From Nitrospinaceae bacterium (GTDB lineage: Bacteria; Nitrospinota; Nitrospinia; Nitrospinales; Nitrospinaceae), in the NCBI GenBank assembly GCA_965223665.1, contig OZ245011.1, forward strand, positions 2,976,001 to 3,040,000: a stretch of DNA of 64,000 nucleotides. The letters are read 5' to 3'. Each line of letters opens with the position of its first letter. The first letter of the stretch is position 1. The notes beneath the pieces were generated by a model. The model was given only the letters and a program-made list of their open reading frames with translations, was not told the DNA's origin and did not search any database. Shown here one piece after another: positions 45,167 to 61,716 of the stretch. The position numbers were made by a program, and so were the translations under genes.

Positions 45167-45243
<77 letters not shown>

Positions 45244-45286
45244 AAAATCAATGGGTTATGAATTTAGGCTAACTTCAAAACTATCT

Positions 45287-45307
45287 TGGGTAGCGATATG
45301 GGTAGCG
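45287..45307 (+). repeat. Putative integrase arm-type sites (left)
   Basis: TGGGTAGCG twice at 12-bp period; a further GGGTAGC at 45417-45423. Confidence 0.65.
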
Positions 45308-45607
45308 TTTTTATTTATAGAGTTAATTTAGATAATACTAGATTTCCCTAGTTCTATTCTCACTATTCCCTCACTTACCTTAATTCAAAAAATATAGAAA
45401 AAATAGGAAGGGTGTAGGGTAGCTGCTTAAAATTCACACTAGTTGAATGATCTGAGGCAGGGGCAAGTTTACAGAAACTGAACTTTAAATATGGGCTAAA
45501 CTTCGGGGTTTGGTTAGCAGCAAGACTTGAGAAGTTGGAGGTAAGCTCTGAAACACCAGCTTGGTTCTGCCCACAATATTATTGGCAAGTCCTTTGGAGA
45601 ACCAGAC

Positions 45608-46174: not shown

Positions 46175-46296
46175 ATATGTTGCGCATAACCCACCCATCA
46201 AGTGGCACCCAAAAACTCTATTTTGCTACCTGACCCGACCCTCTGGAATTAGTCTTTCTGTTAAACAAAGAGAAACCTAAAAAACATTTTAGAATT

Positions 46297-46620
46297 TTAT
46301 ATTTTGGTTAATTTCAAATTCCCTATTGACTGAACCATCCGATTCAATTCCCGCCTTACCCTCATGGATTCTTTTCTTTGTTGAATAACTTCTGCAGATC
46401 GGTTCCCGTGTTTCCAGTTAGCTTTCCGACTTCGCTCTAAACCTGCCAATGTGCGGGGTCCTGTGCTCTTGCCCCCATGCAATCGACAGCGTCCATTTTT
46501 CATTGCGGGACTTTGGCAAGGAGTTTGTTTTCTGGTTTTGGCACCACAGCGAGGAGTTTGATTAGCATAGTTTAAACCTATCTTCCAAATGGGCTGATGG
46601 GGTTCATTGACGTTTCTCAT
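46297..46620 (-). CDS. HGGxSTG domain protein
   Basis: RCGAKTRKQTPCQSPAMKNGRCRLHGGKSTGPRT...KHG. Confidence 0.85.
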   Translation of the reverse strand: MRNVNEPHQPIWKIGLNYANQTPRCGAKTRKQTPCQSPAMKNGRCRLHGGKSTGPRTLAGLERSRKANWKHGNRSAEVIQQRKESMRVRRELNRMVQSIGNLKLTKI

Positions 46621-47315
46621 GATTCCCCCCTGGTATCTAAGGCCCCGGTGACTACCGCTTGGCCTCCATCTTTAACATTGATATGCTGCACCGTGATAGT
46701 CTGGTTCCCTCCAGTTCGAAGTTTATGGAGAGCCATTAAACCTTTCTGAAAACTATCCATCATTCGGGCAGAAGCATTGGATGCTCGTATAGACTCTAAT
46801 GAATAATATTCCTTACTATGGAGGGTGATTGCATTATCACTTTCACTCAAATTTTTAAGTGAACGACTGGCAAAAGTCATTGCCAGTTTATGAGCTGCTC
46901 CTAATTGGTGAGCCAACATTTTTTCCAACGAGTTCTTCGCTTGGATAGTTTCAGCCGCATCGAGAGCGAGTCCGGTGCAGTCTGCATCGAATATTAATTG
47001 CAGTCGTTCTTGACTCGCTTCGGCAGTGACATTATCAGGTTTATCAACAGTATTTACTAAAGCGGGTATTTCCTCAGCTCTTTCTTTGGAAAGAGATAAT
47101 TCACCTCCACAACCCACGGTGGGATGTTCATTCTCTGGAATCTTTATGGCTTCCTGAACCTGTTCTTCTAACTCATCAGCATCCAAACGCATAAAGCTTG
47201 CTCCCAAAGTATCTACACAAGGAGGAGATTCCAGTTCATTAGCCGTAGCTCTCAGGTTTTTTACTTCAACTTTATCTCGTAATGCTTTTTTTAATTTATC
47301 TTTAGGCTTTGACAT
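46617..47315 (-). CDS. Hypothetical protein coupled to the HGGxSTG gene
   Basis: 4-bp overlap with the HGGxSTG gene; LEKMLAHQL and QTITVQHINVKDGGQAVV motifs. Confidence 0.65.
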   Translation of the reverse strand: MSKPKDKLKKALRDKVEVKNLRATANELESPPCVDTLGASFMRLDADELEEQVQEAIKIPENEHPTVGCGGELSLSKERAEEIPALVNTVDKPDNVTAEASQERLQLIFDADCTGLALDAAETIQAKNSLEKMLAHQLGAAHKLAMTFASRSLKNLSESDNAITLHSKEYYSLESIRASNASARMMDSFQKGLMALHKLRTGGNQTITVQHINVKDGGQAVVTGALDTRGES

Positions 47316-47349
47316 AATTCATCCAAATAAAATTAGAATTATATGCTTA

Positions 47350-47649
47350 TTAATTTTTCCAATGTTTTTGCAGTTCTTCTCTAATAGCCTTAATTTTCAT
47401 GCTACCTGGTTTCCACCAATGGTACTTTTGATTGCAATCAAAAGGAATTACTAAACTTTTTTGTTCATTGAGATAAGGCTTGGGTGTTGATTTCTTAATT
47501 ATTTGAATTAATTGAGGCTTAAAACACTTTATTTGTTCAATTAAATCTTCCTCAATTGGTTGATTGCCTGCGCACTTTAATTGGTTTCCTTCAACGCTTA
47601 ACTCAAAACCTTTTTTTTGTATTTCTTTCAAAAATTGCTGAGGGGTCAT
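47350..47649 (-). CDS. Small protein, TubC N-terminal docking-domain-like, coupled to primase
   Basis: FLKEIQKKGFELSVEGNQLKC; overlaps the primase stop. Confidence 0.55.
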   Translation of the reverse strand: MTPQQFLKEIQKKGFELSVEGNQLKCAGNQPIEEDLIEQIKCFKPQLIQIIKKSTPKPYLNEQKSLVIPFDCNQKYHWWKPGSMKIKAIREELQKHWKN

Positions 47650-50081
47650 ATCCTTACCTCATGTATAGGAGAATCTGGATTCCTTTTAGATTTATTAGGG
47701 GAAACGCCGTCATCGCCGTCAGGGCCGAACAATTCTTTATTTTTAAAGGTTTTATTTTTTGTCGGTGTCTTGTCGACGTTGGCCTGGGTCGACAAATCGC
47801 CGTCAAGAGCGGACTCTTTATTTGTCAAGGAGTTATCCTCCTTTATAGTGGCTCTGTCGGCCTGATCGGCCTTTTCCGGAACTTTTCTAAATGTGACAAT
47901 TTTTCGACCGGTGCCTGTTTCTCGTTGATCAAAATCGACTTCGATTCCGATTTCAAGCAGGGTAGGAGCCAACCTTCTGATTCGGTTCGAAAGTACGCTT
48001 GGAGATTTAGGCCATTGTCTGGTTCCACCAACTCTGGGGTCTATCTGTTTACCGAGCTCAGAAAGCAAATCTGAAAAACTGCCTTCCCATTTACCCAGCA
48101 TGGCCATCAATTCAATGATGGACTGGGCCAAGACATCTGTTTCCAGATTGTTTTCAATCGCTAAGGCAAGGTTATTCTCATATTCTTTTTGAAATGATCC
48201 GGACTCCCAACCTAGAGAGGATTCAGCGGCCGTCACCCACTTGGTAAAATCCGCCATGCGAGGATATGAATCCAAGGTTATAATTTCATTGACCTTATGG
48301 GCATGGCAAACTGCATCCAAAAGCGCTCCTAAAATTCTGGAACGGGCTTTTTCAAAATCCTTTAATAAAGTTTGTTCGTCTTTCCTTTTTTCTTTTGGGA
48401 TTCTTGGCAGGAATAAAATTAAAGATCTTACTCTAAGATCATCCCGTTTGCAGATGTCATCAATTCCATTCAGAATCAAAGGACGCTGAGATTCAAAGAT
48501 GATCTCTTCGGAATCTGTGTAAAGTTCTCGAGTACCAAGCCCTCCCCCCGTCGACAATCTGCAGAATGCATCCGATAGCCATGGGGAAAGGCCACTCAAG
48601 TTGTCAAAGGCTAATATCCAGGAGTTTTTGGCGCTGATCATCAAGTCTCGACATTCTTTCGGTGTACTTCTCAATGTCGATATTGAAGGATCGACTACAG
48701 AACGGATGATGCGACTGAAGGTAGACTTGGCAGAACCATGTTCGCCTTGAATGACTAATATAGGAAAAGGGCCTTTGGATTTTAAAGCTGCGATCAAATA
48801 ACCCACGACCAATTTTTTCTGGTCCTCACGAATATTAATGAATTGAAACAATTCATCAACCTTACCTCCAGATACTGGATGAGGAATGGGGTTCATTCCC
48901 CTCGCCCGGACAAATTTAACCGGAGATTGGGAAATAACTTTCCAACTTGTGCCAGTGATTTCTACGACTTCCCATTTGTTATTGCACAGATCTAGGTAGA
49001 TGTTTCCATTCGCTTCGCCTATTCGTGTATAAACTGGAATGGTTTTGCCCTCAAATCTAGCTCTACCTTCCAAAATTCCCAAGGCGTCACTTAGAGCTTG
49101 GTTGCCTGGGGGCTTATTGAACTGAGAGAAAAACTTATGACCTAGCCATAATTTGAAACCCTTCGATCGTACTTGACAAGTTTCATTATGGTCCTCTACC
49201 AAATAAGTCACATAGGCCGTCCCATCAGGATTGTGAAAAAATTCGCAACTTGAGGCTAGTTCAATCAACGACTGTGCCTGGGTGGGTTTTTCATCCCCAG
49301 ATAACTCAGAAAAAGAGTCAATAGAGGTGGTGGCGTCCGAATCGGGAATATTTTCTTCACCAAAATACTCTTCATAATTTCCTTGGTATATCGGAGCAGC
49401 ATCGACTAACTTCTTTAATTCTTCAATTGAATTTTCCTCAAGGTAATCAGAAACGTCATAGCCTGATTTGCAATCCTTAAATCGAATGATTTTGATGGAC
49501 TGAACAAAATTAAAAAGATGTTTCGAAACCAATTTGCCATGAGCCCGACCTTTTTCATCATTGTCTTCAATAATCACTACTTCCCGATCTTTAAAGTAGG
49601 GATTGTATTCAGATTTCCATTTTGCTTCGCCATCATAATTTGTGGTTGCGGTAAGTTTGTATTTTAATAAGGTATCGACATCCTTTTCACCTCCCACCAA
49701 ATAAACGGTTCCGGTACTATTTATTAACTCTGGAAGTCGGTAAAGGACCCGTTTTGTGTTGCCAAGTTTCCAAGTCCAGCCTCCTGATCGTTTTGGTTTT
49801 CTAAGTCGAAATTCTTTGGAAGGGTATCTTACCTTTTGAAAAAGGAGATTCCCGGTTTCATCCTGATAAGGGTATTCTTTGATTATGGATTCTGAATTTC
49901 CATCTTCTAGTCTGCCCTTCCAACCACAGTGGTGACAAACCCATACCCGTTTATCTAAATTGACGGACAGGCATGGTGCCGTCTTCTTTTTACGTGTATG
50001 AGAACATTTTGGGCATAATGCGCTTACTTCTCCTGCTTGTTTCTCATCAATCTTAATTCCAAAGTCAGCAAAGGTTAACAT
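47646..50081 (-). CDS. Primase-helicase (Zn-binding + TOPRIM + P-loop ATPase)
   Basis: CPKC...CHHC; LYRLP..GGEKD..EDNDEKG..DVSDY; Walker A GEHGSAKST; RMADF. ATG at 50081 has an AGGAG RBS (track start 50114). Confidence 0.85.
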   Translation of the reverse strand: MLTFADFGIKIDEKQAGEVSALCPKCSHTRKKKTAPCLSVNLDKRVWVCHHCGWKGRLEDGNSESIIKEYPYQDETGNLLFQKVRYPSKEFRLRKPKRSGGWTWKLGNTKRVLYRLPELINSTGTVYLVGGEKDVDTLLKYKLTATTNYDGEAKWKSEYNPYFKDREVVIIEDNDEKGRAHGKLVSKHLFNFVQSIKIIRFKDCKSGYDVSDYLEENSIEELKKLVDAAPIYQGNYEEYFGEENIPDSDATTSIDSFSELSGDEKPTQAQSLIELASSCEFFHNPDGTAYVTYLVEDHNETCQVRSKGFKLWLGHKFFSQFNKPPGNQALSDALGILEGRARFEGKTIPVYTRIGEANGNIYLDLCNNKWEVVEITGTSWKVISQSPVKFVRARGMNPIPHPVSGGKVDELFQFINIREDQKKLVVGYLIAALKSKGPFPILVIQGEHGSAKSTFSRIIRSVVDPSISTLRSTPKECRDLMISAKNSWILAFDNLSGLSPWLSDAFCRLSTGGGLGTRELYTDSEEIIFESQRPLILNGIDDICKRDDLRVRSLILFLPRIPKEKRKDEQTLLKDFEKARSRILGALLDAVCHAHKVNEIITLDSYPRMADFTKWVTAAESSLGWESGSFQKEYENNLALAIENNLETDVLAQSIIELMAMLGKWEGSFSDLLSELGKQIDPRVGGTRQWPKSPSVLSNRIRRLAPTLLEIGIEVDFDQRETGTGRKIVTFRKVPEKADQADRATIKEDNSLTNKESALDGDLSTQANVDKTPTKNKTFKNKELFGPDGDDGVSPNKSKRNPDSPIHEVRI

Positions 50082-50211
50082 TATGACCATCTCCTTTCTT
50101 CCCACCAAAGCCAAATACTGAGGATTAGGAGTATGGCTTGAGGCACAATTTCGTTGAAAAGCAACCGAGAAACTATGACATCGTAACTTAATTTTATTTG
50201 CCTAATTGTCA

Positions 50212-50445
50212 TCATGAGGTTATTCCTCCTTCTTCACCTAAAGTTCCCAAATTTCGTGAAGATCCACCCACCCCGCGAGGTCTTGATTCGATCCAGGCTT
50301 CAACTTCATTTAAATTCCAGCCCACACGATTTGAACTTAGTTGAATACTGAGAGGGAAATTCCCTGCCTTCATCAATCTCCAAATGGTGGACATGGACAG
50401 CCCAGTCATCTCAATAACTGTTTTCCTGGGGATGATTTTTTTCAT
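50212..50445 (-). CDS. AlpA-family transcriptional regulator / excisionase
   Basis: VIEMTGLSMSTIWRLMKAGNFP...LSSNRVGW...EVEAWI; ATG at 50445 preferred. Confidence 0.9.
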   Translation of the reverse strand: MKKIIPRKTVIEMTGLSMSTIWRLMKAGNFPLSIQLSSNRVGWNLNEVEAWIESRPRGVGGSSRNLGTLGEEGGITS

Positions 50446-50473
50446 TTTTCCCTTTTCAAAATTTGTTTTAGTC

Positions 50474-50523
50474 AAAAAAAAACGCTTCAAGGCATCGAGA
50501 AGCGTCTCAATGCCTTGAAGCGT
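50474..50523 (-). terminator. Strong intrinsic terminator immediately upstream of alpA
   Basis: Minus strand ACGCTTCAAGGCATTGAGA-CGCT-TCTCGATGCCTTGAAGCGT followed by a T-run. Confidence 0.75.
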
Positions 50524-51207
50524 CCGGTTCGCACTCCAAGCGTGGTCTGGTTTAGGCGGAAACTAATTCAGTTAATGAAATAGTACAGACCAAATATTGT
50601 GCGTAGCCGCATGGTTTTTCCGACCATTAAATACTTAGTTCCAAAAATGCTTGGTTCCAAAGGTACATGCGACCACTATAAATTTAGGAGAGTTTAATAA
50701 TTATCCTCTCACTAACATAATATAAATTTTCTAATTAAAAGCCAAATATTTTTTTATTCTTTGGACCCTAACAATTGAATCCTTTTAATGAAAGCCCTTG
50801 ATAAAAAAATCTATTCTTTTTATTGATTAATCTAAACCTTAAATTTCAATGGTTTAATAAGGTTTTTATTTTAATCAACTGACTGGAGTAAATATTTTTC
50901 TAAAGGAAATTAAATAGACCATTGAGGCAATATTTGATAACACAAATTAGTTGAATCTGAAGAGATAGAAATGTTTTAGTGAAAAACTAGAATTAAATTA
51001 TTAGTAAGAAACAAAAACAAAGTTTACCATTATTCTTTCTCAAACCTTGGCCATTTGGAAATAGAACCTTTTCACAATTTCTTTACATGATAGATATTTT
51101 GTATTAAAAGAAAAGCATTCATTGCCTAGTTTGGCCATCAAGCTTAGAAGAGGAAGAGATAGCCCTGATAGACTATATCAGATATCAAACGACCGGTTGA
51201 AATGACT

Positions 51208-51223
51208 ACCCATAGCGGACATT
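51208..51223. repeat. Cassette-boundary repeat R1 (half site)
   Basis: ACCCATAGCGGACATT, 18 bp before the helicase start. Confidence 0.7.
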
Positions 51224-51241
51224 CGCATATAGAGTAAAAAT

Positions 51242-53083
51242 ATGGACTTTAAAATAATATTTTATTGGGGTGTTTTAATAGTATTTTTAATCTGGTGGCT
51301 CACAAGAAAAAAAAACGATGCTGAAAACAAAATAGTTGAGTACTCAGGCCCTCAAACTGGTGCGATAAAGAAAGAATTAAAGGAAACTCGTAAACCACAA
51401 AATTGGCTGGTCATAGATAAACCTCAAAGCTTTGAAAAAAATGAGGAAATCGAAGAAGTTCTCAATGCACTTGAAAATACAAACCAGAACATATTCCTAA
51501 CAGGAAAAGCTGGGACAGGAAAATCAACTCTCCTAAGTTATTTCCGTGCCACGTCCAAGAAAAATCCAGTTGTGATAGCTCCAACGGGGGTTGCTGCTGT
51601 CAATGTACAAGGTCAAACAATACATAGTTTCTTTGGTTGGGGAATTGATGTAACCCCAGAAAGAGTAAGAAAGCTTAGTTACGAAAAGTCAAAAATATAT
51701 AAAAAGTTAAAGATGTTGATTGTTGATGAAATTTCTATGGTTCGAGCGGATCTTTTTGAATGCGTCGACAAATTTCTAAGATTAAATGCAGGCAAGAAAA
51801 ATCTTCCTTTTGGAGGTGTGCAGATAGTTGTTATTGGCGATCTGTATCAATTACCTCCCGTTGTTAAAGATCAAGAACGAAAATTATTTGAAGGGATGTA
51901 TTCATCTCCATTCTTTTTTAATACTGCAGCCTTTAATAAAGGTTCTTTCAAAAAGTTTGAACTTAGTAAAGTTTACAGACAAAAAGACCCCAAATTCATA
52001 GCTGCATTAAATGCAATACGCGAGGGTGTTGTAGATGATAGTCATATTGAATTACTAAACCAAACAGTAATTGATGAAGAACCTGAGGATTTCGAAGAAT
52101 ATATTCATCTTGTTACCACCAATAGAATGGCAAAAGAAATAAATGATAACCGGATGCATTGCTTGCCATCAAAACCTGTTGTTTATGAAGGAAAATTATA
52201 TGGGACCTTCAAAGAGGAAAATGCTCCAACAGATTTAAGGTTAGAATTGAAATCAGGCGCTCGGGCAATGTTGTTAAACAATGATCGAAACAGAAAATGG
52301 GTTAATGGTGATGTGGTGAAAGTGTTGGAGACACGATCAGATTCTGTGCTTGTTGAGTTTGAAGATGACACGGTCCATGATGTGGGGTTTCATACATGGG
52401 AGACTGTTCGATTTATTTTTGATGAGGAAGAACAGAAAATTATTCCCAAAAAGATCGGAGGATTCACACAAATTCCAATTAAACCGGCATGGGCTATTAC
52501 TATACATAAGGCACAAGGAAAAACTTTTGAAAAAGTATTTATGGATTTAGGTGCTGGTTCTTTTGCAGAAGGACAAACGTATGTGGCTCTCAGTCGATGC
52601 AAAGCACTTGCAGGTCTAAAGCTTGCATCGCCGTTGATGATTGATGACGTTTTTGTAAACGAAAAAGTAAAGGACTTTATGTCTTTTACTCATGGTCAGA
52701 AAAATGAGACATCCTCTTCTAAGACAAAACAAAACCCAACACAGAAACAAACGAACCCATCTACTAATACTATATTAAAATCAGAAGAAAAGTTATCAGA
52801 GGAAGAATTTGTTCTAAATGCAATCAAAAATTTACGAACAGGAAATTACAAGGGTATTCATGTTGTATACAGTGGATTCAATAAAGCATTTCGCGAGTAC
52901 TTTGACGCTGATCCAGTTGAATCCGTTAAAAAATTAGAAAAAAATGGTGTGGTTGTAACTCGTCCTGTTAAAGGTGGTGTCATGCTTTATAATTCAAAGG
53001 AATACAGTGTTCCAAGCTCAAAAAAGAAAGAAGCGAGCAATACATTGTCTAAGATTTTAGGTGATGGGAGTAAAAAGCGTTAA
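51242..53083 (+). CDS. PIF1/RecD-like SF1B helicase with N-terminal TM anchor and extra C-terminal domain
   Basis: GKAGTGKS, APTGVAA, TIHSFF, VDEISM, FGGVQ..GDLYQLPPV, YRQ, AITIHKAQGKT, QTYVALSR. Confidence 0.88.
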   Translation: MDFKIIFYWGVLIVFLIWWLTRKKNDAENKIVEYSGPQTGAIKKELKETRKPQNWLVIDKPQSFEKNEEIEEVLNALENTNQNIFLTGKAGTGKSTLLSYFRATSKKNPVVIAPTGVAAVNVQGQTIHSFFGWGIDVTPERVRKLSYEKSKIYKKLKMLIVDEISMVRADLFECVDKFLRLNAGKKNLPFGGVQIVVIGDLYQLPPVVKDQERKLFEGMYSSPFFFNTAAFNKGSFKKFELSKVYRQKDPKFIAALNAIREGVVDDSHIELLNQTVIDEEPEDFEEYIHLVTTNRMAKEINDNRMHCLPSKPVVYEGKLYGTFKEENAPTDLRLELKSGARAMLLNNDRNRKWVNGDVVKVLETRSDSVLVEFEDDTVHDVGFHTWETVRFIFDEEEQKIIPKKIGGFTQIPIKPAWAITIHKAQGKTFEKVFMDLGAGSFAEGQTYVALSRCKALAGLKLASPLMIDDVFVNEKVKDFMSFTHGQKNETSSSKTKQNPTQKQTNPSTNTILKSEEKLSEEEFVLNAIKNLRTGNYKGIHVVYSGFNKAFREYFDADPVESVKKLEKNGVVVTRPVKGGVMLYNSKEYSVPSSKKKEASNTLSKILGDGSKKR

Positions 53084-53097
53084 TCGAAACATTAAAT

Positions 53098-53151
53098 AAA
53101 GTCCGCTTTGGGTCGAAATAGACCTGTCTGTCTTCGGCTAAAGCGGACTTT
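53098..53151. repeat. Cassette-boundary repeat R2
   Basis: AAAGTCCGCTTTGGGTCGAAATAGACCTGTCTGTCTTCGGCTAAAGCGGACTTT; perfect 12-bp outer arms. Confidence 0.85.
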
Positions 53152-53239
53152 TGAAAATTCAATTTAAATTTTTCACACACCTAAATTTTATTGTTGTAGG
53201 AGGAGGGTTCCATAACAAGGGTTAATCAACATTCGAATA

Positions 53240-54112
53240 ATGACACAAAATACTTTTCGAACAACAACAATTGAAGAATTTTTTCATCCAATTTCTGGGC
53301 ATATAGTTCCTTTATATACTTTTTCAGGCCAAAATTCTTTCGTAGCTGGAACAGCTGTAATTATTGCTCCAGGTCTAGCTGTGACAGCTTGTCATGTGAT
53401 GGAAGCACTGCTTAATTATTTTGGGAACGATCAGCTAAAAGGTAATTTAGAATTAGATATTTACTTAACACAGCTAAATACAGGGGCGACATGGTATGTC
53501 TGCAATTCCGCTACTTGGGTTGGGACTGACATCACTGTTTTATCTCTTGTTCCAAGAAACTTTAATAAAGAGAAAAATGTTATTGGTTCGCTTCAAATAA
53601 CGGTAGATCCTCCCAATGTAAACGATACCGTTGTTGCCTATGGTTACCCAAAGACAGAATTAAATATTCCCAGAAATGACTCTGAGCAAACAGATTTAAA
53701 ATTTAAAGTATACCCAACATTGTCAGAAGGTTTAGTTTCTGAGATACATAATTCCAAACGAGATTCAGTGTTATGTAGATTTCCATGTTTTGAAGTAGGA
53801 GCAGAATTTAGTAGGGGTATGAGCGGAGGTGCTGTATTTAATCAAGATCGTGAATTATGCGGTCTTGTTTGTTCAGGTGGAGATGGGGACTTAAGAAACT
53901 ATTCCGTAGCAACAAGCATATGGCCGATGTCTATTATTCCTGTAATAATGCCAAGTGGTATAGCCTCTCATGATAGTGTTGTTTCAGGTGCTACATATAA
54001 GGTTCTGGATCTGGCAAAACAAGGTTACATAAAGATGAACGGGCATGAAAGGATTGAGTTCTTTAAACATGAAAATGGTTCGCAAGGGGTAAGACGTTTC
54101 CATAAAACATGA
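53240..54112 (+). CDS. Trypsin-like serine protease, no signal peptide
   Basis: Catalytic triad motifs TACHV, TDI, GMSGG. Confidence 0.8.
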   Translation: MTQNTFRTTTIEEFFHPISGHIVPLYTFSGQNSFVAGTAVIIAPGLAVTACHVMEALLNYFGNDQLKGNLELDIYLTQLNTGATWYVCNSATWVGTDITVLSLVPRNFNKEKNVIGSLQITVDPPNVNDTVVAYGYPKTELNIPRNDSEQTDLKFKVYPTLSEGLVSEIHNSKRDSVLCRFPCFEVGAEFSRGMSGGAVFNQDRELCGLVCSGGDGDLRNYSVATSIWPMSIIPVIMPSGIASHDSVVSGATYKVLDLAKQGYIKMNGHERIEFFKHENGSQGVRRFHKT

Positions 54113-54158
54113 ATATGTTTACTTCAATTCTATGGCAGTAAGGTTAGTATTGTCGTTT

Positions 54159-54210
54159 TGTCCGCTTTTGGCCGAATGTGCACATATTTGTTTTCGACCC
54201 AAGGCGGACA
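54159..54210. repeat. Cassette-boundary repeat R3
   Basis: TGTCCGCTTTTGGCCGAA-N16-TTCGACCCAAGGCGGACA. Confidence 0.85.
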
Positions 54211-54307
54211 TCCGTCCGCATGAAAACCGAACTCCCCATAAGGAAATTTTAGAAAAATTTTTGTGAATTCTGGTGGTGCTTTTTTTGAAATGACCTGCGA
54301 GGTTACA

Positions 54308-55285
54308 CTAGCGACCTCTTTTTCTCCGCAGTTCGACCGTGGAATATTCTTCTGGACCAAACCCTCCTAACTTGATACCCGACTTGACATCCTTATATTT
54401 TTTCCCGAGACGCTCAATTCCTATATCCCTTCGCGGACCAAAAAGAAAGCGGCGCGCAGATACTGAACGTATCTTATTAATTTGCTTCACCATACTCGAT
54501 TTAATCTTAATTTCCCTAGGAAGTTCTTTGTCCCAAGTCGCCATCAAACAGGTTTTCTGTGAAAGCGGGAAAGTAAGTTGCACTTTCTTATGAATAAGTC
54601 CACCACCATAGAAAGGGTGTTGGTAAGCAGGGGGAACATCAAAAAATAATGGATTGTCACTAGTTATAAAATAATGCGGCTCTGGCGCCAGTAATATAGA
54701 CCAACACATTTTATAAAAGATTGGGCAAAATTTTTCGTAAAACTTTAGGGCTTGGAGTGACCATTCCTTGTCCACAGACACAATAAATTTTTGTGGATTA
54801 AGCATACCCTCTTTTAAACTTTTAATTTCTTCCTTAGTTAGAGGCCCTTGATCGCGTTGGTAATCCTTAATAAGGTTTTGAAATGCTCCATCATGTTGTG
54901 CAGTGGCGTACATTTTTAATTGATACGCGTTCATCATTATTTCAGCGTATTGATTCCTGAAGGAATCCGTTCGTAAATACATGAGGGCCATAAAACTAGC
55001 AAATGAGGCACGTTCCTGATCTGTAAGTGGTTTGCTTTCAATTAATTTATTAAAAATTGGGGCCGCTTTTGCTTCAATTTTAGAAAAAAAATCTTCCACT
55101 TCATCGGACCGCTGCCCATTTTCCAGCGTCACACTATAAAGATATTTTTCATAGGCAGTATTTTCGATCGTGGAAGTGCGCCCCTCCTCCAATTCAATGT
55201 CATAGGTCCAGATCTTTTCATCTGGTTCAATAGAAGCGAACCGTCGGAGATAAAATTGTGGAATGAAATGATGTTTTTTCTTCAA
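54308..55285 (-). CDS. DUF4238 domain protein
   Basis: KHHFIPQFYLRRF N-terminus, FITSDNP, FPLS. Confidence 0.8.
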   Translation of the reverse strand: MKKKHHFIPQFYLRRFASIEPDEKIWTYDIELEEGRTSTIENTAYEKYLYSVTLENGQRSDEVEDFFSKIEAKAAPIFNKLIESKPLTDQERASFASFMALMYLRTDSFRNQYAEIMMNAYQLKMYATAQHDGAFQNLIKDYQRDQGPLTKEEIKSLKEGMLNPQKFIVSVDKEWSLQALKFYEKFCPIFYKMCWSILLAPEPHYFITSDNPLFFDVPPAYQHPFYGGGLIHKKVQLTFPLSQKTCLMATWDKELPREIKIKSSMVKQINKIRSVSARRFLFGPRRDIGIERLGKKYKDVKSGIKLGGFGPEEYSTVELRRKRGR

Positions 55286-55551
55286 AATTTTTAATTAAAA
55301 AGATGGTTTGTTTAGCTTTTGGGTGAGGCCTATGAATATGAATTGGAATGTATGGGGAAACTATTTCCTACGGAATCCGGCTCTAAAAGCATGCTCTTGT
55401 ATAATATATGGGATTTTGAAAGAAAAAAGTCAAGATTGCCCGAAAATTCATACTTTTCTGGCGAGCATAGTATTTGATTTTGTTTGGGATTTTTCTGCGG
55501 AAAACTCAAACAAAATGACAGGTTATTGTGCGATCCTTTTTTCTAGCTAAG

Positions 55552-55587
55552 TGTCCGCTTTTGGCCGGAAGGCGACCCAAAGCAGGC
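55552..55587. repeat. Cassette-boundary repeat R4
   Basis: TGTCCGCTTTTGGCCGGAAGGCGACCCAAAGCAGGC. Confidence 0.75.
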
Positions 55588-55697
55588 TTTCGGCACAAGT
55601 TCCCTTAGCAGTCGAACTCGTGGAAGGTATGCTAAATTTTTCTTGATTGCCTAAACGGAAAGGATTAGGGTTGGGGGAACCCACGAAAAAAAGATGT

Positions 55698-55724
55698 GAC
55701 GGCTTTCGACCCATAGCAGACATT
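55698..55724. repeat. Cassette-boundary repeat R4b (minimal single unit)
   Basis: GACGGCTTTCGACCCATAGCAGACATT (reverse complement AATGTCTGCTATGGGTCGAAAGCCGTC). Confidence 0.75.
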
Positions 55725-55771
55725 TTTAAATGACAGAATTTTATCAGGAACATATATACGGTTGGAATTAA

Positions 55772-56770
55772 ATGAAAGCGATAACCTATAAAAATACGCT
55801 AACAACTTTACCTAATTGGGTAAAGGACCTCCACGAAAAAGAACCTCGAGGCATTGCATATGAAACCTCATCACATTTCGTCCATTTTTATTGTAGAGAC
55901 TATGGTTGGTGGGTTCTTTCTCCAGGAATCACAGTTGTTCAAAAAAAGAGTGATTCTTTAAATGACTGGGTCAAACGAACTTTTGGGGCTAAAAATATAT
56001 TAAACATGTCTACTAGGGTTGGTGAAAGCGTTAAAGGGGTATGGCGACCGGGCCTCTATTTTGATGATGAGATTCAGCAGGCTCTTTCGGTAACAACGCC
56101 AGGTAAGCATGAATCCCTCGTTTCAATAGGCCTTCTTCTGGAGTCCCTAGAAATTATTTTCCGTTACATAGAGCCTAGCCCAAATGGAATGTTGACATAT
56201 AGCCACAAAACCAGAGAATTACTGATTATCGCCTGTACAGAAGTTGAAAATCAATTGGCGCAGTATATGAAATTGGCCACTGCAAGGCCTATCAATAAAA
56301 AATTTTTTACCACTCAAGATTATGTTCGGCTATCTGACCCTCTTCATCTCTCTGATTTTGTTCTCAGTTCCAAAGCTTACCCTCACATAGGCACTATACA
56401 TCCGTTTGGAGGGTGGAAAGGAGAGGGAGCCACATCCTCTATCCCTTGGTATGAAGCTTACAACCACACCAAGCACGACCGTCAGTTAAACTTTGACAAA
56501 GCAACATTAAAAAGCTGTATAGATGCCGTATGTGCGAACATTGTTCTATTCTGCGTGAGATATAGTCCTTACGCTCTTGTCCGCGAAAATGGCAATGCCC
56601 AATCTTTATTTGGTCAGCTCTTTAATATAGAAATGAAGAACTGCGATCCAACAAAATTTTATGTGCCTAGAATTGATATATCAGTAAATACACGAACAGA
56701 TTTAATTTGTTACAATAGCTACCAAAAAAAAGACAATTGCCCTTGGAATATTTCCCCACTTATTTTGTAG
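55772..56770 (+). CDS. Hypothetical protein, possibly HEPN-like
   Basis: 332 aa; YIEP...YSHKTRELLIIACTEVE and PWYEAYNHTKHDR motifs; stop codon abuts repeat R5. Confidence 0.6.
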   Translation: MKAITYKNTLTTLPNWVKDLHEKEPRGIAYETSSHFVHFYCRDYGWWVLSPGITVVQKKSDSLNDWVKRTFGAKNILNMSTRVGESVKGVWRPGLYFDDEIQQALSVTTPGKHESLVSIGLLLESLEIIFRYIEPSPNGMLTYSHKTRELLIIACTEVENQLAQYMKLATARPINKKFFTTQDYVRLSDPLHLSDFVLSSKAYPHIGTIHPFGGWKGEGATSSIPWYEAYNHTKHDRQLNFDKATLKSCIDAVCANIVLFCVRYSPYALVRENGNAQSLFGQLFNIEMKNCDPTKFYVPRIDISVNTRTDLICYNSYQKKDNCPWNISPLIL

Positions 56771-56812
56771 TGTCCGCTTATGGCCGGTAGGTGCAATTGA
56801 CCAAAGCGGATA
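56771..56812. repeat. Cassette-boundary repeat R5
   Basis: TGTCCGCTTATGGCCGGTAGGTGCAATTGACCAAAGCGGATA. Confidence 0.8.
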
Positions 56813-56832
56813 ATTACCTAAGGAGATAGAGA

Positions 56833-57702
56833 TTGTATAATTTACTGGTTTCAAGTAATGACGAGGCTTGGGATAGTGACTCATACACCCTAGAGATAGG
56901 CCGTTGTGTTCGTGAATATACAGATGTAAATTTAACTAAAAAGTATGGAGACTTTACTCAAGAGCAAGTTGATTCAATTAGACGTTTTCCTTGCATATTT
57001 GCTTACGAGTCTGGGCACAAAAAAAATCCCAAATTTGGAATTATCAAAGACTTAACAAGTCGCCAAGGAAAAGTTAAGATTGAATACGAATTAATTGAAA
57101 TTGATGATTTTATTTCTCACTCTGATATTAATGAGATGCTATTTGAGTTGGATATCAGTGACTGGGAGATGAATAGAACTCACTGGGCTATTAAAGATGT
57201 TAACCTACCTAAGGAACTTTTATCAAAAGGAGTTCGTCTTCCGAATTGGGCGAGAAGTGAGTCAAAAGCTGTTGATATTACAAAGCACATGTTTGATGTG
57301 GCATTTTCCTTTCCGGGAGAAATTAGGAAATATGTTGAGTCAATAGCGGCAGAATTAGAAAAAGAAATTGGGCCAAATTCATACTTTTATGACAATAATT
57401 ATAAGGCTCAACTAGCAAGGCCTTCTCTTGATACCTTGCTACAAGAAATTTATGGTTGTAGATCTAAACTGGTTGTGATTTTTCTATGCGAAAAGTACCA
57501 AGAAAAAGAGTGGTGTGGCATAGAGTTTAGAGCAATCAGAGAAATTATCATGAATCGAGACCATGAGAAAGTTATGTTCATCAAGATGGACGAAGGTAAG
57601 ATTGATGGTGTCTTCAAAACAGATGGCTACATTGATGGGCGTATCCACAAACCCCATCAGATAGCTGGTTATATTCAAGAGCGTGTTTCATTACTGTCAT
57701 AA
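56833..57702 (+). CDS. TIR domain protein (C-terminal TIR, uncharacterised N-terminal domain)
   Basis: FDVAFSFPGE..YVESIA..FYD..Y..KEWCGIE with the conserved TIR Glu; TTG start after AAGGAG. Confidence 0.8.
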   Translation: MYNLLVSSNDEAWDSDSYTLEIGRCVREYTDVNLTKKYGDFTQEQVDSIRRFPCIFAYESGHKKNPKFGIIKDLTSRQGKVKIEYELIEIDDFISHSDINEMLFELDISDWEMNRTHWAIKDVNLPKELLSKGVRLPNWARSESKAVDITKHMFDVAFSFPGEIRKYVESIAAELEKEIGPNSYFYDNNYKAQLARPSLDTLLQEIYGCRSKLVVIFLCEKYQEKEWCGIEFRAIREIIMNRDHEKVMFIKMDEGKIDGVFKTDGYIDGRIHKPHQIAGYIQERVSLLS

Positions 57703-57759
57703 CAACGCACTGTTGACGGATAAATTCTTTACCCCAAATTTGCCATAAACGCAGTATGA
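57697..57759 (+). other. Decayed integron attC-like site
   Basis: TCATAAC overlapping the stop codon ... GGATAAATT/AATTTGCC inner stem ... GTATGA (GTTATGA minus one T). Confidence 0.55.
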
Positions 57760-57773
57760 ATGTCCGTTTTGGG
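57759..57773. repeat. Cassette-boundary repeat R6 (degenerate half site)
   Basis: AATGTCCGTTTTGGG. Confidence 0.6.
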
Positions 57774-57844
57774 AAAGTGAGAATGGTCCTTATGAAAACT
57801 GAGTGCTGTTCCCTAGCAGTGGAGAGACAAGGAGAGTAGGAATA

Positions 57845-58363
57845 ATGAACGAAAAGAAAAAAAGAAGCCCAAACCAATGGATTTACTTTGGTCTTCCTGA
57901 AGATGAGAAATTGTTGTCAACTCTGGGAATTATGTCCATTAGACATGGTCAGCTTGAACATGTGTTAAAAATGACTATAAAAACACTTGGAAATCTCTCC
58001 ATAGAAGAAGCGTTGGATGCTACATCCCGTGATGGTCCGGCCAAACTGCGAAAACGCATTAGGAAACTTGCTCAGGGCATATTTAGAGAAGGAGAAACTT
58101 TACTAAAATTACAGGCGTTGCTTGCCCGTTCGGAGAGAGTTACTGAGCAAAGAAACGAAATGACGCACAATTTATGGGGTCATGAAATGGATGGTATCCC
58201 TGTGGTAAGGAAAGAGGACCATAGCTGGGAAACTGCACCTACATTTGAAGAGGTAAATAGTCTTTCAAAAAAGATTGAAACTATTACAAAGGAACTTAAT
58301 GACGCGCGCCTGCAAGGTTTTATTTATAAAGAAATTGAAAAAAACAAAAAATCCAATCAATAA
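57845..58363 (+). CDS. Hypothetical protein with HEPN-like RxxxxH motif
   Basis: Helical protein with RNEMTH; ATG at 57845 preferred. Confidence 0.6.
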   Translation: MNEKKKRSPNQWIYFGLPEDEKLLSTLGIMSIRHGQLEHVLKMTIKTLGNLSIEEALDATSRDGPAKLRKRIRKLAQGIFREGETLLKLQALLARSERVTEQRNEMTHNLWGHEMDGIPVVRKEDHSWETAPTFEEVNSLSKKIETITKELNDARLQGFIYKEIEKNKKSNQ

Positions 58364-58468
58364 AACCAAATGTAATAACGCTTATTGTGGAAATGGGTGA
58401 TTGCTCTATCCGATTGAGTTGTCTCTAGGGAATAGATAAAGAATATCCTTTAAACTTTCCTTGGCCGA

Positions 58469-58638
58469 AAGTCCGCTTTTGGCCCAGACTGTGTGAAAAC
58501 TCAAAACCAACTTGAAATTGAGGGTGCCTAACCCCTTCCCCATATAACAATAACAGCTTTACGGGCTTCTGGTGTAGTCGGTTTTCAGTAAGGAACCTTG
58601 CTATCAGAGTTTTCACACAATCTGGGCCGATAGCCGTC
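58469..58638. repeat. Cassette-boundary repeat R7 interrupted by a MITE
   Basis: AAGTCCGCTTTTGGCC[140 bp]GGCCGATAGCCGTC. Confidence 0.8.
58485..58624. mobile_element. 140-bp MITE with 18-bp TIRs (IS1182-like ends), flanked by GGCC
   Basis: CAGACTGTGTGAAAACTC ... GAGTTTTCACACAATCTG (17/18 inverted match); GGCC at 58481-58484 and 58625-58628. Confidence 0.75.
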
Positions 58639-58753
58639 TTTCCAAATTCGAATTCTAAAGTTTAGATAATTACCAACTCCCAAATGATGAACATATGACG
58701 CTCAAGTCCTCTATTGAAGTTGGAGCATGAGAAGGATTTAAGCATTTTCAGAA

Positions 58754-59962
58754 TTACTTTTGATGAATTTTGACTATCTTTTCTTTAGGTTTGCCAGTCA
58801 CAAGGCTTTCAAGATTTCGACCCCATGAGTTTAGGGCCATCCGTTTTTCCCGATCATAGCTATGGCGATCATAAACAGAAGTTACTCCTGATTCAACATG
58901 GTTTAAAATTTTAGAAACTGTGAGTCGGGGGATACCTGAGGCCGTCATCATGCTCGCAGAGGTACGACGAAGGTCATGGGGTGTGAAATGTGCGATCTGG
59001 AAATGATTCGCATTGATTCTTACTGCGTGATCCACTGAGGTTTCGGCGATATGCCTTTCTCCTCTAGGGGAAGGAAAGAGCCATGGAGAGAGGACAGTAA
59101 TTTCTTTTAATTCTTCCAGAATTTGAAGGGCAAAATTAGATAAAGGAACCCGGTGAGGAAAACCATTCTTGGCTTTTTCAGCCGGTATTGTCCACCAACC
59201 TTTTTTTAAGTCAAAATCTTTCCATTCAGCCCCAGTCACTTCACCTTTTCTTTGGGCTGTGACCAATTGGAGCTTTAAGGCTAAAGCTGTGGTTGATTCC
59301 ATTCTGGCCGAATCCAGTTTTTTCCAAAAAATTTGAATTTCTTCTTCGTTAAGTACTCTATCGCGTCTATTTTCTTTTGAAGGAGCAGGAATAGCGACAC
59401 AGGGACTGGAATCCAAAATTCCACGGCCCATGGCAAAGGAATACATTTTGCGAATAGCGGCAAGGGTACGGTTGGCTTGGATCAGAGCTCCACGTTCAAC
59501 AATTTCATCGAGAAGTAGGATGACGTCTCGACGAGTAATATCCTGTGCCTTGCGTTTTCCCCAACGGGTTATTACATCCTTATGCAAAATGCGCTCGTCT
59601 TCTTTCCATGATCTCTTTCTTGGTTTGGCATATTTTTCAATATATTCATCTACCAACCTTTTAACTGTAGGGGAACGACGAGATTCTTCCTTTTCTTCTT
59701 GTTCCACTGTTGCTGGATCAATGACTCTTTCAAGCAGTTGTCGGGCCTTCGCATGGTCGGCATGGGCATCGGCCAAAGACTTTTGGGGATAGTTGCCAAA
59801 TGTCATCCGCCGGGAGGTTCCTTGAAATCGGTATAAGAAGATAAAACTTTTTCTACCGGTAGGGGAAACACGGATTCCAAAACCTTTACCATTATCTTCC
59901 CAAATCTCATATCGTTGGCTTTTAGGTTTAAGTGCTTTAATTTGACGGTCGGTAAACTTCAT
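58754..59962 (-). CDS. int: Tyrosine integrase, P4-like, with N-terminal arm-DNA-binding domain
   Basis: MKFTDRQIKALKP...GFGIRVSPTGRKSF..GNYP.SLADA; AQRKGE, HDLRR, LNH, SVYDR. ATG at 59962 preferred. Confidence 0.92.
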   Translation of the reverse strand: MKFTDRQIKALKPKSQRYEIWEDNGKGFGIRVSPTGRKSFIFLYRFQGTSRRMTFGNYPQKSLADAHADHAKARQLLERVIDPATVEQEEKEESRRSPTVKRLVDEYIEKYAKPRKRSWKEDERILHKDVITRWGKRKAQDITRRDVILLLDEIVERGALIQANRTLAAIRKMYSFAMGRGILDSSPCVAIPAPSKENRRDRVLNEEEIQIFWKKLDSARMESTTALALKLQLVTAQRKGEVTGAEWKDFDLKKGWWTIPAEKAKNGFPHRVPLSNFALQILEELKEITVLSPWLFPSPRGERHIAETSVDHAVRINANHFQIAHFTPHDLRRTSASMMTASGIPRLTVSKILNHVESGVTSVYDRHSYDREKRMALNSWGRNLESLVTGKPKEKIVKIHQK

Positions 59963-60049
59963 AAAATTCTGACTTTCAATCAGTTGGTTTAATGCAGCAA
60001 TTTCTGGTACAAAATTTTTTAACTCATTCCTCCACAAAATGAATTATCT

Positions 60050-60085
60050 GCTACCCATGAGCTTGGGGGTAGCATTGTGGGTAGC
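60050..60085. repeat. Putative integrase arm-type sites (right)
   Basis: GCTACCCA (inverted) at 60050; GGGTAGC at 60067 and 60079 (12-bp period). Confidence 0.65.
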
Positions 60086-60241
60086 AAAATTGACCTGGCA
60101 ATGGGTGAAACAGAGTGAAATAATCTGATTAAGAAAATAGCATAAAAACTGTTTAAATACAATTAATTATGATATTAATGGTAGGTGTTCAGGGTGTTTC
60201 AGGAGGGGTCACCAATATTCAGCATATTTCAAACATGGACC

Positions 60242-60289
60242 GATTCGTAATCAGTAGGTCAGCGGTTCAATTCCGCTCGGTGGCTCCAT
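60242..60289 (+). repeat. att core, right copy (duplicated tRNA 3' end)
   Basis: 48-bp identity with 45196-45243. Confidence 0.95.
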
Positions 60290-60501
60290 TAAATCCCTAA
60301 AAATTTAAATATATATAGACCATTGTCTTATTAATTGGAAACGCCTGTTTAAAAATAATAAAGTGAAAATAAGGGTTGGAATCCAATAAAATAATTGGAC
60401 CGTAGCGGGAGTAATACAATACAAATCAACTTCATATGAAAGTAGGTTAAACACCACCATGAAATTATATAAATTTCTGGAACAAGCCATGTGGAGAACA
60501 T

Positions 60502-60731
60502 ATGGATATTAATATTATTCTTGCACTAAATTTTTAGCAATTACTCTTTTAGAGACCTTATCACCTGGACCCACATTTGCCTTAGTCGTACAAGCTAGAA
60601 TAAGTGAAAAAGAATCTGATATTAATAAGCTTTTAAGTGGAATAACTTTAGCAAATCTATTATGGGTCATTCTTGTTATTAATGAATACGAATGGTTTTT
60701 AACTTTAGGAATTGAAATTAAAAAAATATAA
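60502..60731 (+). pseudogene. LysE/RhtB-family translocator remnant
   Basis: GGAGA-ATG frame stops after 11 codons; a shifted frame reads FLAITLLETLSPGPTFALVVQA...SGITLANLLWVIL, then stops at 60731. Confidence 0.55.
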
Positions 60732-61481
60732 TCAATCAAATTCCAATAACTCTACCTAACAGTCATAAGAATAGAATTAATATTTCTTTAATCTCATTAA
60801 GGGTATCAACCATTTTCCTGGATTATGTTTATTGGCGAAAAGGGGTATACTTCTTGTTTGTTATTATCATATTATTACCAATAAACCCCTGAAATTTTTT
60901 TATTAAAATTATACTTTTCAAAGTTTATCCATTTTACTCGACCACTTAAGGCCAAAGTTTTAATTCATGTGATTTAGAAACATATTGGATTAGAGATGAT
61001 TATTATAGGTAAGAAGTGTTATATAGTTTCGAGTAATTCCAGGTGATGTTTCGTTAAAGGGAGGTTTGGTTTTAAAGGGCCAATGTAAACAAGAAGTCTC
61101 ACAGAGTCTTAATTAATTACCAAAAAATCTGCAATTTATTTTTTTCTTTCCAAAGCTCAAAGTAACAACAATTCAAATTTATAACGTTTTCTACTTGTTC
61201 TCACCCTCTAAAAACGTCAATAAATTTTTAAAAATTTTTAACTTTACTTATGGAACACCTTTCTTAGGTGAAGCGGTCAATTAGGAACGGTATGAATTTA
61301 AATTTTGAGTTTGTATTCCTTTTTTATTGGAACTTTAAGGCATGAAAAAATCAGCTTAATTAAATCATTAAAAATAAACTTGTTAATCCATTTTCGATAC
61401 CAATCTTTCTTTCCTACGATTTTTCCTACTTTAAATTGGCTAGTTTTAGCCCAATACTTTCAAGTACTTAAAAAAAAGTAT

Positions 61482-61510
61482 TTGACAATTTTGACTTATT
61501 TCCCTAGTGT
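61482..61510 (+). promoter_or_regulatory. Candidate sigma70 promoter
   Basis: TTGACA-N17-TAGTGT, about 200 bp upstream of the large secreted-protein gene. Confidence 0.4.
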
Positions 61511-61716
61511 TTGGCTTACTGAATTAATTTTCGCTATATAGAATTTTAATTTGTATTTTTATTCCGCTAATGAAGTTCAATGGGAGGGAGAGATAGGTCT
61601 TAACTATTTATAATATAGTTGATTATGGCCATTGAGCTCCTGGGTTGCAAAGTGCATCCTGTTTCCCTCCTCACAAAATATATTTTTACTATTTCCTAAT
61701 TTATAGGTGATTCCAA

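Follow-up and report, generated by a model that had tools for sequence, protein, structure and literature searches.

Phage satellites of the P4-like and PICI-like (phage-inducible chromosomal island) kinds have defence hotspots, and defence genes are also known as cargo of integrons. Two further systems resemble the locus described here in the way their genes are set between short sites. The dif modules of Acinetobacter plasmids are, according to the reports on them, bounded by 28-bp pdif (XerC-XerD) sites, in which a 6-bp spacer of several classes separates two 11-bp arms, one of them the better conserved (PMC13141974; PMC6449649; PMC12907356); between such sites, set inversely to one another, 'D modules' and 'C modules' take turns, and modules without an open reading frame (ORF) are known (PMC13141974). 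In T4-type phages an intergenic motif made up of a promoter-like part and a stem-loop (PeSL) flanks variable ORFs in the hyperplastic regions, where modular shuffling has been proposed; PeSLs reportedly come from one phage group only and would work via homologous recombination (PMC2839356; PMC4122927). Here we analyse a 64-kb stretch of a Nitrospinaceae genome (contig OZ245011.1; 'the window' hereafter means this whole stretch of 64,000 nucleotides), in which an integrated satellite-type element at a tRNA-Thr gene carries six single genes separated by copies of a short, imperfectly palindromic site.

In our proposal, the sites mark the boundaries of modules, and genes are exchanged there by recombination, probably through a recombinase acting in trans; taking the mechanism, which we infer, together with the boundaries, we hold the chances of this reading to be about even. 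We read the repeats of the window as copies of a site of 28-30 bp that is widespread, most of these copies being compacted or half-decayed; the modules between such sites would move among phages, satellites and chromosomal islands via recombination at them. The likeliest agent would be a site-specific recombinase, supplied in trans and acting on a site shaped like dif or lox, with exchange through short homology as the fallback. Recombination of this kind would have built the array of the window: in this lineage, the interval between the integrase and excisionase genes of a tRNA-Thr satellite would have been filled with single-gene defence modules.

The repeats of the window are not a product of chance. 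The 15-nt pattern GTCCGCTWTKGGYCG (<=2 mismatches) has nine matches in the window against 0.22 expected from dinucleotide-preserving shuffles, none of 100 of which reached nine and the largest of which gave two; all nine lie within 51206-58485, at gene boundaries, and neither the pattern search nor nhmmer found further copies elsewhere in the 64 kb. The shorter AGCGGAC has 11 matches in the window (2.22 expected), seven of them in the array. Every copy of the repeat in the window is intergenic. This bears out an earlier note, written from the letters of the stretch, which had placed copies at every boundary of the six genes and in no other intergenic region of the window. Seven of its eight copies are present (51208, 53098, 54159, 55552, 55698, 56771 and 58469); the one at 57759 is weak, has ATGTCCGTTTTGGG only and is missed at <=2 mismatches. 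The note had also seen the full copies as bulged hairpins, which holds in part: single-stranded DNA folding beats shuffles in four of the seven copies tested (z -6.8 at 53096, -2.8 at 54156, -2.2 at 56768 and -4.8 at 58465, the copies called R2, R3, R6 and R8 below) and does no better than shuffles for three (55549, z -0.6; 55694, +0.1; 57757, 0.05), and what lies at 51208 and at 55698 is in each case one half or short site, not a long hairpin.

The array opens with R1 (51206..51222, + strand; read from the sequence and the pattern search), a single half-site made up of the core CTACCC and the conserved arm ATAGCGGACAT, directed toward the gene of a PIF1/RecD-like helicase of 613 aa (51242..53083, +; Pfam PIF1, E 3.6e-32; PADLOC PDC-S68 and RecD-like). 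R2 (53098..53151) is a composite junction in flipped form (arm + GGGTCG ... CGGCT + arm) and is followed by a trypsin-like protease of 290 aa (53240..54112, +; Pfam Trypsin_2, E 2.7e-12; PADLOC matches weak). The third cargo gene encodes a DUF4238 protein of 325 aa on the minus strand (54308..55285; Pfam DUF4238, E 1.4e-50; PADLOC DUF4238-Pers, E 5.5e-8) and lies between two composite junctions, R3 (54158..54211; arm + TGGCCG, 20 nt, CGACCC + arm) and the compact R4 (55551..55589; arm + TGGCCG, 5 nt, CGACCC + decayed arm). R5 (55694..55723, +) is a single 28-30-bp site with the variant left arm GACGGCTTT, the core CGACCC and the right arm ATAGCAGACAT; after it comes a gene for a 332-aa protein of the phage family phrog_19461 (55772..56770, +; E 1.4e-92), for which Pfam and PADLOC gave no match. 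The first base of the composite junction R6 (56771..56811) directly follows the TAG stop codon of this gene (56768-56770), just as the earlier note had observed. A TIR-domain protein of 289 aa is next (56833..57702, +; Pfam TIR_2, E 2.7e-7), then R7 (57760..57773, +), a doubtful copy that has a decayed left arm only, and then the gene of a 186-aa protein (57803..58363, +); no family in Pfam or PADLOC matched the latter, and its former label 'HEPN-like' is not confirmed. The array closes with R8 (58467..58642), a long composite of 36-nt inverted arms (86% complementary) that are 104 nt apart and each start with a site arm and core; it lies 112 nt beyond the 3' end of the integrase gene. As read from the letters, five of the six genes have ...AGCGGAC on their left and GTCCGC... 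on their right, and the exception is the 186-aa gene, which is without the left arm; on this point, too, the earlier description was accurate.

We also compared the window over 44500-62500 with the assembled contigs of four public runs from one study of two samples. In run X4, from the second of these samples, a contig matches the window at 58471-58502 only, i.e. the left arm of R8, and differs from it on both flanks; the 32-nt arm is present there in another context.

A further conserved block precedes R5 (55628..55693, +; seen from BLAST copies and their alignment). It combines TTGATT, 17 nt and TAGGGT with an A/T-rich stretch upstream and may be a promoter. Its copies, 81-94% identical, recur elsewhere in this genome at C1:2242090-2242186 and, on the phage-like contig C2, at 34683-34775, 33304-33354, 31397-31440 and 29885-29917 (C1-C6 are contigs of this genome, G000 hereafter). 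The genes after them are unrelated or only 26% identical to one another: two Shedu genes, the 332-aa phrog_19461 gene and others on C2. A site follows the block in three of the six copies. A promoter-like part with a stem-loop beside variable genes is also what the PeSLs reportedly offer; unlike those, the stem-loop part found here is common across phyla, and only half of the promoter-like blocks, those three of six, are followed by a site.

Alignment of the window copies with copies elsewhere defines the unit as a site of 28-30 bp in which inverted arms of 11-12 bp enclose an asymmetric core of 6 bp (…GTCCGCTTT, then CGACCC or TGGCCG, then AAAGCGGAC…). The position table of 265 distinct sites gives the consensus AATGTCCGCTTT - YSRCCS - AAAGCGGACATT. 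Among these sites the core is CGACCC in 130 (a count inflated by the presence of CGACCC in the exact search pattern), TGGCCG in 54, CCACCC in 35 and of other forms in a few; core positions 4-5 are CC in 95-96%, a conservation equal to that of the arms. The sites end in AATGTCCGC ... GCGGACATT, and by inspection the RYYYAAC/GTTRRRY boxes of attC are seen neither there nor at the ends of the window copies, in agreement with the earlier note. The two arms are unequal, with strong conservation 3' of the core and a loose arm on the other side: in a sample not chosen by motif (the whole genome plus 16 long stretches of the genomes G042 and G043), 102 sites were anchored on core and right arm versus 30 on left arm and core. 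No compensatory change was found in the one variable arm pair (C/T versus G/A; odds ratio 0.85, p 0.84, n=286), the only pair that could be examined since these 286 sites were gathered with the right arm fixed. Hence, these data fit separate contacts of a protein with the arms on duplex DNA rather than selection for a hairpin, an argument that hangs on this single pair. Simple tyrosine-recombinase sites such as dif, pdif and lox share this 11-6-11 layout, in which one arm is good, the other is loose and the core falls into several classes; the site has the 28 bp, the 11-bp arms, the 6-bp spacer and the one better-conserved arm of a dif-type site.

With this unit in hand, the longer junctions of the window, 36-54 nt in length, can be read as a left arm with TGGCCG, 5-21 nt, and CGACCC with a right arm, R2 being the same in flipped form. 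One TGGCCG-type half is paired with one CGACCC-type half in all four window junctions (R2, R3, R4, R6) and likewise in all four of the junctions that were found in the order's other genomes. As judged by their letters, the long 'hairpins' of the window are fused neighbouring sites, each half-decayed. Read in this manner, the sites alternate in orientation along the array, a trait of dif modules, and five of the six genes lie between two inward-pointing conserved arms. In G042, a gammaproteobacterial genome with a complete chromosome, such alternation is not seen: both site types are complete there, mostly in direct orientation, and stand 59 or 83 nt apart, forming composites of 87-111 nt in total that fold as one long bulged hairpin (z -5.2). 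A CRISPR-like reading of the 59-nt spacing was considered and rejected, as the 'spacers' group into repeated families. No T-run follows the stem in the aligned sites. The search of Rfam that the earlier note had called for returned no curated family: there were four weak matches only (E 0.04-2.5), all far under the gathering scores, and the sole one to overlap a repeat (R2) is to a coronavirus 5'UTR model at 17 bits, under its gathering score. As regards transposons with terminal inverted repeats, miniature (MITE) forms included, the gene units bear inverted 17-nt ends; a flanking target-site duplication was not seen by eye at the window copies or at two identical modules of G042, with no empty site compared.

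Within G000 the sites are few. Genome-wide, 22 of 23 matches at <=1 mismatch fall in five loci, and 23 of 24 half-sites of at least 10.3 bits (nhmmer) fall in the same five. These loci are mostly mobile: the satellite of the window (nine half-sites), two islands on C1 at 1.50-1.563 Mb (seven) and 2.242-2.244 Mb (four), the phage-like contig C2 (two), and a second satellite, C4 (one). C2 (36,972 bp) is the genome of a lambda-like phage: it encodes portal, head protease and tail J proteins, and a tyrosine recombinase was not found on it; at its accessory end lies a Shedu-type gene between two sites. Site-bracketed Shedu genes of the SduA type were detected with PADLOC both here (C2:33435-34643, E 4e-34) and on the island at C1:2242217-2243380 (E 2.6e-130). 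The backbone of C4 is 90% identical to window 46334-50071 (3.7 kb); its cargo differs and lies on the other side of the backbone, and its site-flanked gene encodes a restriction-like protein (PADLOC). In G000, the sites bracket single defence genes on the phage, the two satellites and an island.

On the C1 island at 1.50-1.563 Mb, a sequence of ~110 nt ending in a CGACCC-type site occurs twice, ~4 kb apart (1554737-1554846 and 1558681-1558790); between them lie two genes, a composite site and a tRNA-Thr(tgt) gene (1557151-1557223), and a partial tRNA-like 3' end is found near 1558400. The congener genome G001 has one copy. C6 and C3, which like C4 represent other copies or relatives of the satellite, have shorter stretches in common with the window. 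A similarity of 17 kb between C5 and the 2.23-Mb island was rejected as the artefact of an internally repetitive gene.

Outside G000, an 18-mer of core and arm (<=2 mismatches) is found in 30 of the 41 genomes of the order and 11 of its 14 genera, where a reversed control gives 0-1 matches per genome. The exact 17-mer occurs, among the matches listed, in more than 116 stretches of named genomes from Sphingomonadales, Caulobacterales, Xanthomonadales/Lysobacterales, Burkholderiales, Thiotrichales, Nitrospinaceae and others, i.e. from Alpha-, Beta- and Gammaproteobacteria, Nitrospinota and Nitrospirota, and also in 10 viral contigs. In many of these genomes the site is a perfect palindrome, frequently in tandem at a 35-nt period. 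The gammaproteobacterial genomes G041, G042 and G044 have 203-264 copies each at <=2 mismatches; across the order of G042, the site is present in 36 of 56 genomes, 17 of them with 27-172 copies (<=1 mismatch), and the other 39 of the 56 have 0-14. The earlier note had set its reading against one in which the repeats are spread genome-wide in the manner of repetitive extragenic palindromes (REP): the confinement to five loci in G000 favours the note, and the hundreds of copies among metabolic genes in these other genomes do not.

In G042 the orientation of the sites divides the chromosome in two: '+' prevails at 0.60-1.77 Mb (34 of 36 sites) and '-' is the sole orientation at 2.16-2.69 and 0.13-0.43 Mb (25 of 25), with a mixed zone at 1.78-2.02 Mb. 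Sites avoid genes (4 of 86 oriented sites are in ORFs, against 74% of random positions); the upstream gene is co-oriented with the site in 64 of 85 cases, and 17 of these 64 ORFs end <=30 nt from the site or inside it. The cargo of the G042 arrays is metabolic and not defensive: DUF1840, cupin, cyclase, sulfatase, flavin reductase and DJ-1 proteins. In integrase elements of G042 that also have a primase-helicase, and at an integrase of G043, sites adjoin the integrase gene, and these integrases are 54-57% identical to that of the C4 satellite. A 397-bp repeat, 99.7% identical, lies in G042 at C1:970423-970819 and 1763275-1763671, in both cases at the same distance (~740-1140 nt) ahead of an array's first site; it opens with a terminator-like hairpin and has no long ORF, only a small one for a hydrophobic peptide of ~45 aa. 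Site doublets occur among ordinary genes on Pantoea megaplasmids; on the P. vagans plasmid NZ_CP028350.1, for instance, 12 kb contain ten sites with cores of the TGGCAC and GAGCGA types, and eight of the ten form doublets whose members start 39-40 nt from each other. The Pantoea copy has a match in 944 of 5426 complete Escherichia coli genomes, mostly once in each. A related hairpin, with 9-bp stems of the same arm sequence and a 7-nt loop, lies at 9012-9038 of an E. coli stretch (NZ_AP018802.1), between xis-like and dGTPase-family genes and adjoining the integrase of a lambdoid prophage.

That modules end at sites is seen in one other genome, G042. There, a 496-bp unit of a site, a 117-aa ORF and a second site is 100% identical at 1765787-1766282 and 1807506-1808001, with identity ending 2 nt outside both sites, and an 884-bp unit is 100% identical at 973368-974251 and 1330590-1331473, starting 6 nt inside one site and ending at the last base of another; the copies of each module are in different arrays. 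Among 15 pairs of repeated segments in 172 kb of G042, 16 of 60 ends lie <=7 nt from a site edge versus 1.2 expected when the site positions are randomised (maximum six in 2000 randomisations), a count inflated to some extent because similar sites let alignments run to their outer edges, which is also the point being tested.

Several observations weigh against recombination at the sites. While the ends of G042 modules support the earlier expectation that breakpoints in relatives coincide with the repeats, the congener lends it little: across a mosaic 130-kb region compared between G000 and G001, only 3 of 72 and 4 of 74 block ends lie <=30 nt from a site (0.63 and 0.86 expected), a small enrichment. 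The identical G042 modules contain both flanking sites whole, which, from their sequence, looks more like a terminal-repeat unit or a conversion tract than a crossover in the core. Most sites of the window leave no room for a second arm, e.g. the 5 nt between the cores of R4; hence, as double-stranded simple sites they may be dead. No joint at any repeat was present in the contigs of the four public runs, which cannot show rare excision products. The sites stand as doublets among ordinary genes in Pantoea plasmids and many Proteobacteria, and the family is specific neither to satellites nor to defence. Lastly, no enzyme could be tied to the sites by searches for IntI, Y1/RAYT (REP-associated tyrosine transposase) and serine recombinases or by clustering of neighbours: no protein family recurs beside the site among 931 ORFs from ~126 loci, the largest cluster being one of histidine kinases at seven loci. 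Of the earlier idea of an integron-like system for gene capture, what holds is that the repeats are non-random, differ from attC and flank single defence genes elsewhere in G000; what has not been borne out is a recombinase linked to them and a tie to satellites or defence.

The candidates for the enzyme were taken up in turn. The integrase of the window was rejected, its att site being the tRNA-Thr repeat; it is only ~26% identical to the C4-type integrase. The latter was rejected as well, and its rarity is a further point to the debit of recombination at the sites: it occurs in 6 of 41 relatives and the site in 30 of 41. The same is true of the dif-like candidate of the host, which lies at C1:720379, close to where the GC skew peaks (0.67 Mb), and differs from a generic consensus at 5 of 25 positions; it is unrelated in sequence to the repeat and makes XerCD an unlikely enzyme. 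No serine recombinase was found in G000. Y1/RAYT (PF01797) has one match in G043 and none in G000, G041, G042 or G044; a RAYT or IS200-type transposase was rejected for its absence from these four site-bearing genomes, three of them with high copy numbers.

The recombination reading has to be weighed, above all, against that of a selfish palindrome like those of the REP families and bacterial interspersed mosaic elements (BIMEs), in which an enzyme would copy the bare palindrome into intergenic DNA, where it would pile up in the gene-poor joints of mobile elements. Genes would then resemble cassettes only because each joint is colonised, and module exchange would be a by-product of homologous recombination, such as has been proposed for the PeSLs of T4-type phages and for the intergenic mosaic elements of Neisseria. 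We consider this somewhat unlikely, both as to the palindrome itself and as to the explanation it gives of the cassette-like order. Short imperfect intergenic palindromes, doublets and triplets in tandem at fixed spacings (35, 39-40, 59 or 83 nt), hundreds of copies in G041, G042 and G044 and dozens or more in 17 genomes of the order of G042, and an orientation bias along the chromosome are all features of REP, BIME and REPIN sequences; the housekeeping-type genes that adjoin sites in many Proteobacteria, the ordinary plasmid genes of Pantoea and the preponderance of G000/G001 synteny breaks away from sites also agree with it. Yet REP families are normally lineage-specific, and here 17 identical bases are kept across phyla. 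The RAYT that mobilises such elements is missing from the four genomes named above, conservation of the core equals that of the arms, covariation between the arms is not seen, and the duplicated units in G042 are whole gene modules with ends at sites rather than bare palindromes. The copies in G000 are, moreover, low in number and confined to a few mostly mobile loci.

It is improbable, to our minds, that the sites are regulatory hairpins or operators (a terminator, an RNA-processing or stabilising stem-loop, or the site of a regulator) that travel with 'moron'-type genes and insulate them with no role in the movement of DNA. Such a function would account for sites abutting gene ends, as at 56771 directly after the stop codon and in the 17 of 64 co-oriented upstream ORFs of G042, for the 64 of 85 co-oriented genes themselves, for the promoter-like block before R5 and other cargo genes, and for the related hairpin between xis and the dGTPase-family gene of the E. 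coli prophage, with its matches in 944 of 5426 genomes. It fits poorly with stems that lack a T-run and an Rfam family, with three of seven window copies folding no better than shuffles, with arms without compensatory change and with neighbouring genes without a common function, and it leaves the module ends at sites unexplained. Very unlikely, finally, are unusual attC sites of an integron whose integrase is elsewhere or lost, i.e. a cluster of attC sites lacking an integron-integrase (CALIN). The likeness is a real one: imperfect palindromes of attC-like length (36-54 nt in the window, 87-111 nt for the composites of G042) divide up arrays whose small genes are mostly single units, unrelated to each other and often without a promoter, the composite folds as one bulged hairpin (z -5.2), and, as attC has two halves, a composite of two simple sites and a variable middle is comparable. 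Against this, the best IntI score (TIGR02249) in G000 is 82.8 bits versus a cut-off of 265, none is above it in G041-G044, and the sites lack the AAC/GTT boxes. Five genomes of the order of G042 (G045, G058, G065, G075 and G079) do have classical integrons, with IntI at 387-490 bits and small co-oriented ORFs, and the stretches beside their intI, 9-16 kb each, have no copy of the site, even in G065, which has 99 copies elsewhere; membership in attC is excluded by these true IntI arrays of related genomes, and an integron was rejected as the source. Unlike integrons, the arrays reported here are many and dispersed rather than one beside intI, with genes in both orientations.

Recombination at the sites as the preferred reading also draws on the resemblance to the dif modules of Acinetobacter. 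By the published accounts of the latter, both have a 28-bp site of 11-6-11 layout with one better arm and core classes, genes between inverse sites and alternating orientation; the shuffling of modules between replicons would be a further trait in common. Unlike them, the sites described here are in chromosomal satellites, phages and islands of Nitrospina-like bacteria and many Proteobacteria and not on Rep_3 plasmids; the 'C-type' modules of the window are shrunk to 5-21 nt with neighbouring sites fused; and the sites of G042 are mostly direct. The repeat also differs from dif modules in being unrelated to the candidate dif site of its host. As the family shares features with dif modules, integrons, REP/BIME and PeSLs and fails one testable defining feature of each, we class it as one of gene modules bounded by short sites. 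A search of the open full-text literature, motif strings included, found no published description of the site; supplements and non-open papers lay outside this search.

More ambitiously, one could see here a second gene-cassette system, independent of integrons, in which a trans-acting recombinase shuttles single genes, in this case phage-defence genes, among phages, satellites, plasmids and chromosomes. It would use a 28-bp dif/lox-shaped site, nearly letter-for-letter the same in Nitrospinota as in Alpha-, Beta- and Gammaproteobacteria, and would have grown in certain lineages of the last group until its sites numbered in the hundreds and its arrays in the dozens; taken as a whole, this is a tentative and rather doubtful proposition. 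If the sites are recombination sites, they would open a broad and so far unnoticed route by which phages, satellites and hosts exchange single genes such as Shedu, TIR and DUF4238 without integrons, and metagenomes could be searched for mobile accessory genes with the site as a simple tag. That the site is nearly identical in different phyla would point to a protein partner that is conserved or travels widely, and the genomes with hundreds of copies offer material for finding it. If they are instead REP-like selfish palindromes, the family would be an unusually widespread one without the usual transposase and would bear on how such repeats spread.

The element that houses the array is 15 kb long and bounded by a 57-nt direct repeat of the 3' end of a tRNA-Thr(cgt) gene, in copies 96% identical: the gene with attL at 45167..45249 (+; ARAGORN; the direct repeat part being 45193-45249) and attR at 60239-60295 (+). 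Between them lie a DNA primase/helicase of 822 aa (47646..50114, -; phrog_239, E 1.5e-22), an excisionase or AlpA-like regulator of 92 aa (50212..50490, -; phrog_2790, E 5.4e-14) and a tyrosine integrase of 427 aa (58754..60037, -). The domains of the latter (Pfam Arm-DNA-bind_3, Phage_int_M and Phage_integrase) and its score far under the IntI cut-off agree with the P4-like type assigned to it before and not with IntI. The integrase, excisionase, primase/helicase and tRNA 3'-end direct repeats make this an integrated element of the phage-satellite type; the phrog profiles also give a weak small-terminase-like match among its proteins. Its size, its integration in a tRNA gene, these three genes and defence-type cargo in the interval between the integrase and the regulatory and replication genes, here between the excisionase and the integrase, are as in P4- and PICI-like satellites; unlike in those, the cargo is split gene by gene by a conserved site family that is also found outside satellites. 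At 46236..46250 (+), where the backbone homology to the C4 satellite stops, the alignment shows a weak, possible remnant of a degenerate CGACCC-type site, and C4 carries a full composite site at the equivalent point. One contig of run X2 (depth 3.9) joins window 45259 to 61416, skipping 16,156 bases; the joint is weak, with a shorter side of 44 letters, has its right end ~1.1 kb past attR and may come from an allele without the element or from a relative. The GC-skew minimum of C1 is at 2.92 Mb, which places the window ~60-120 kb from the probable origin.

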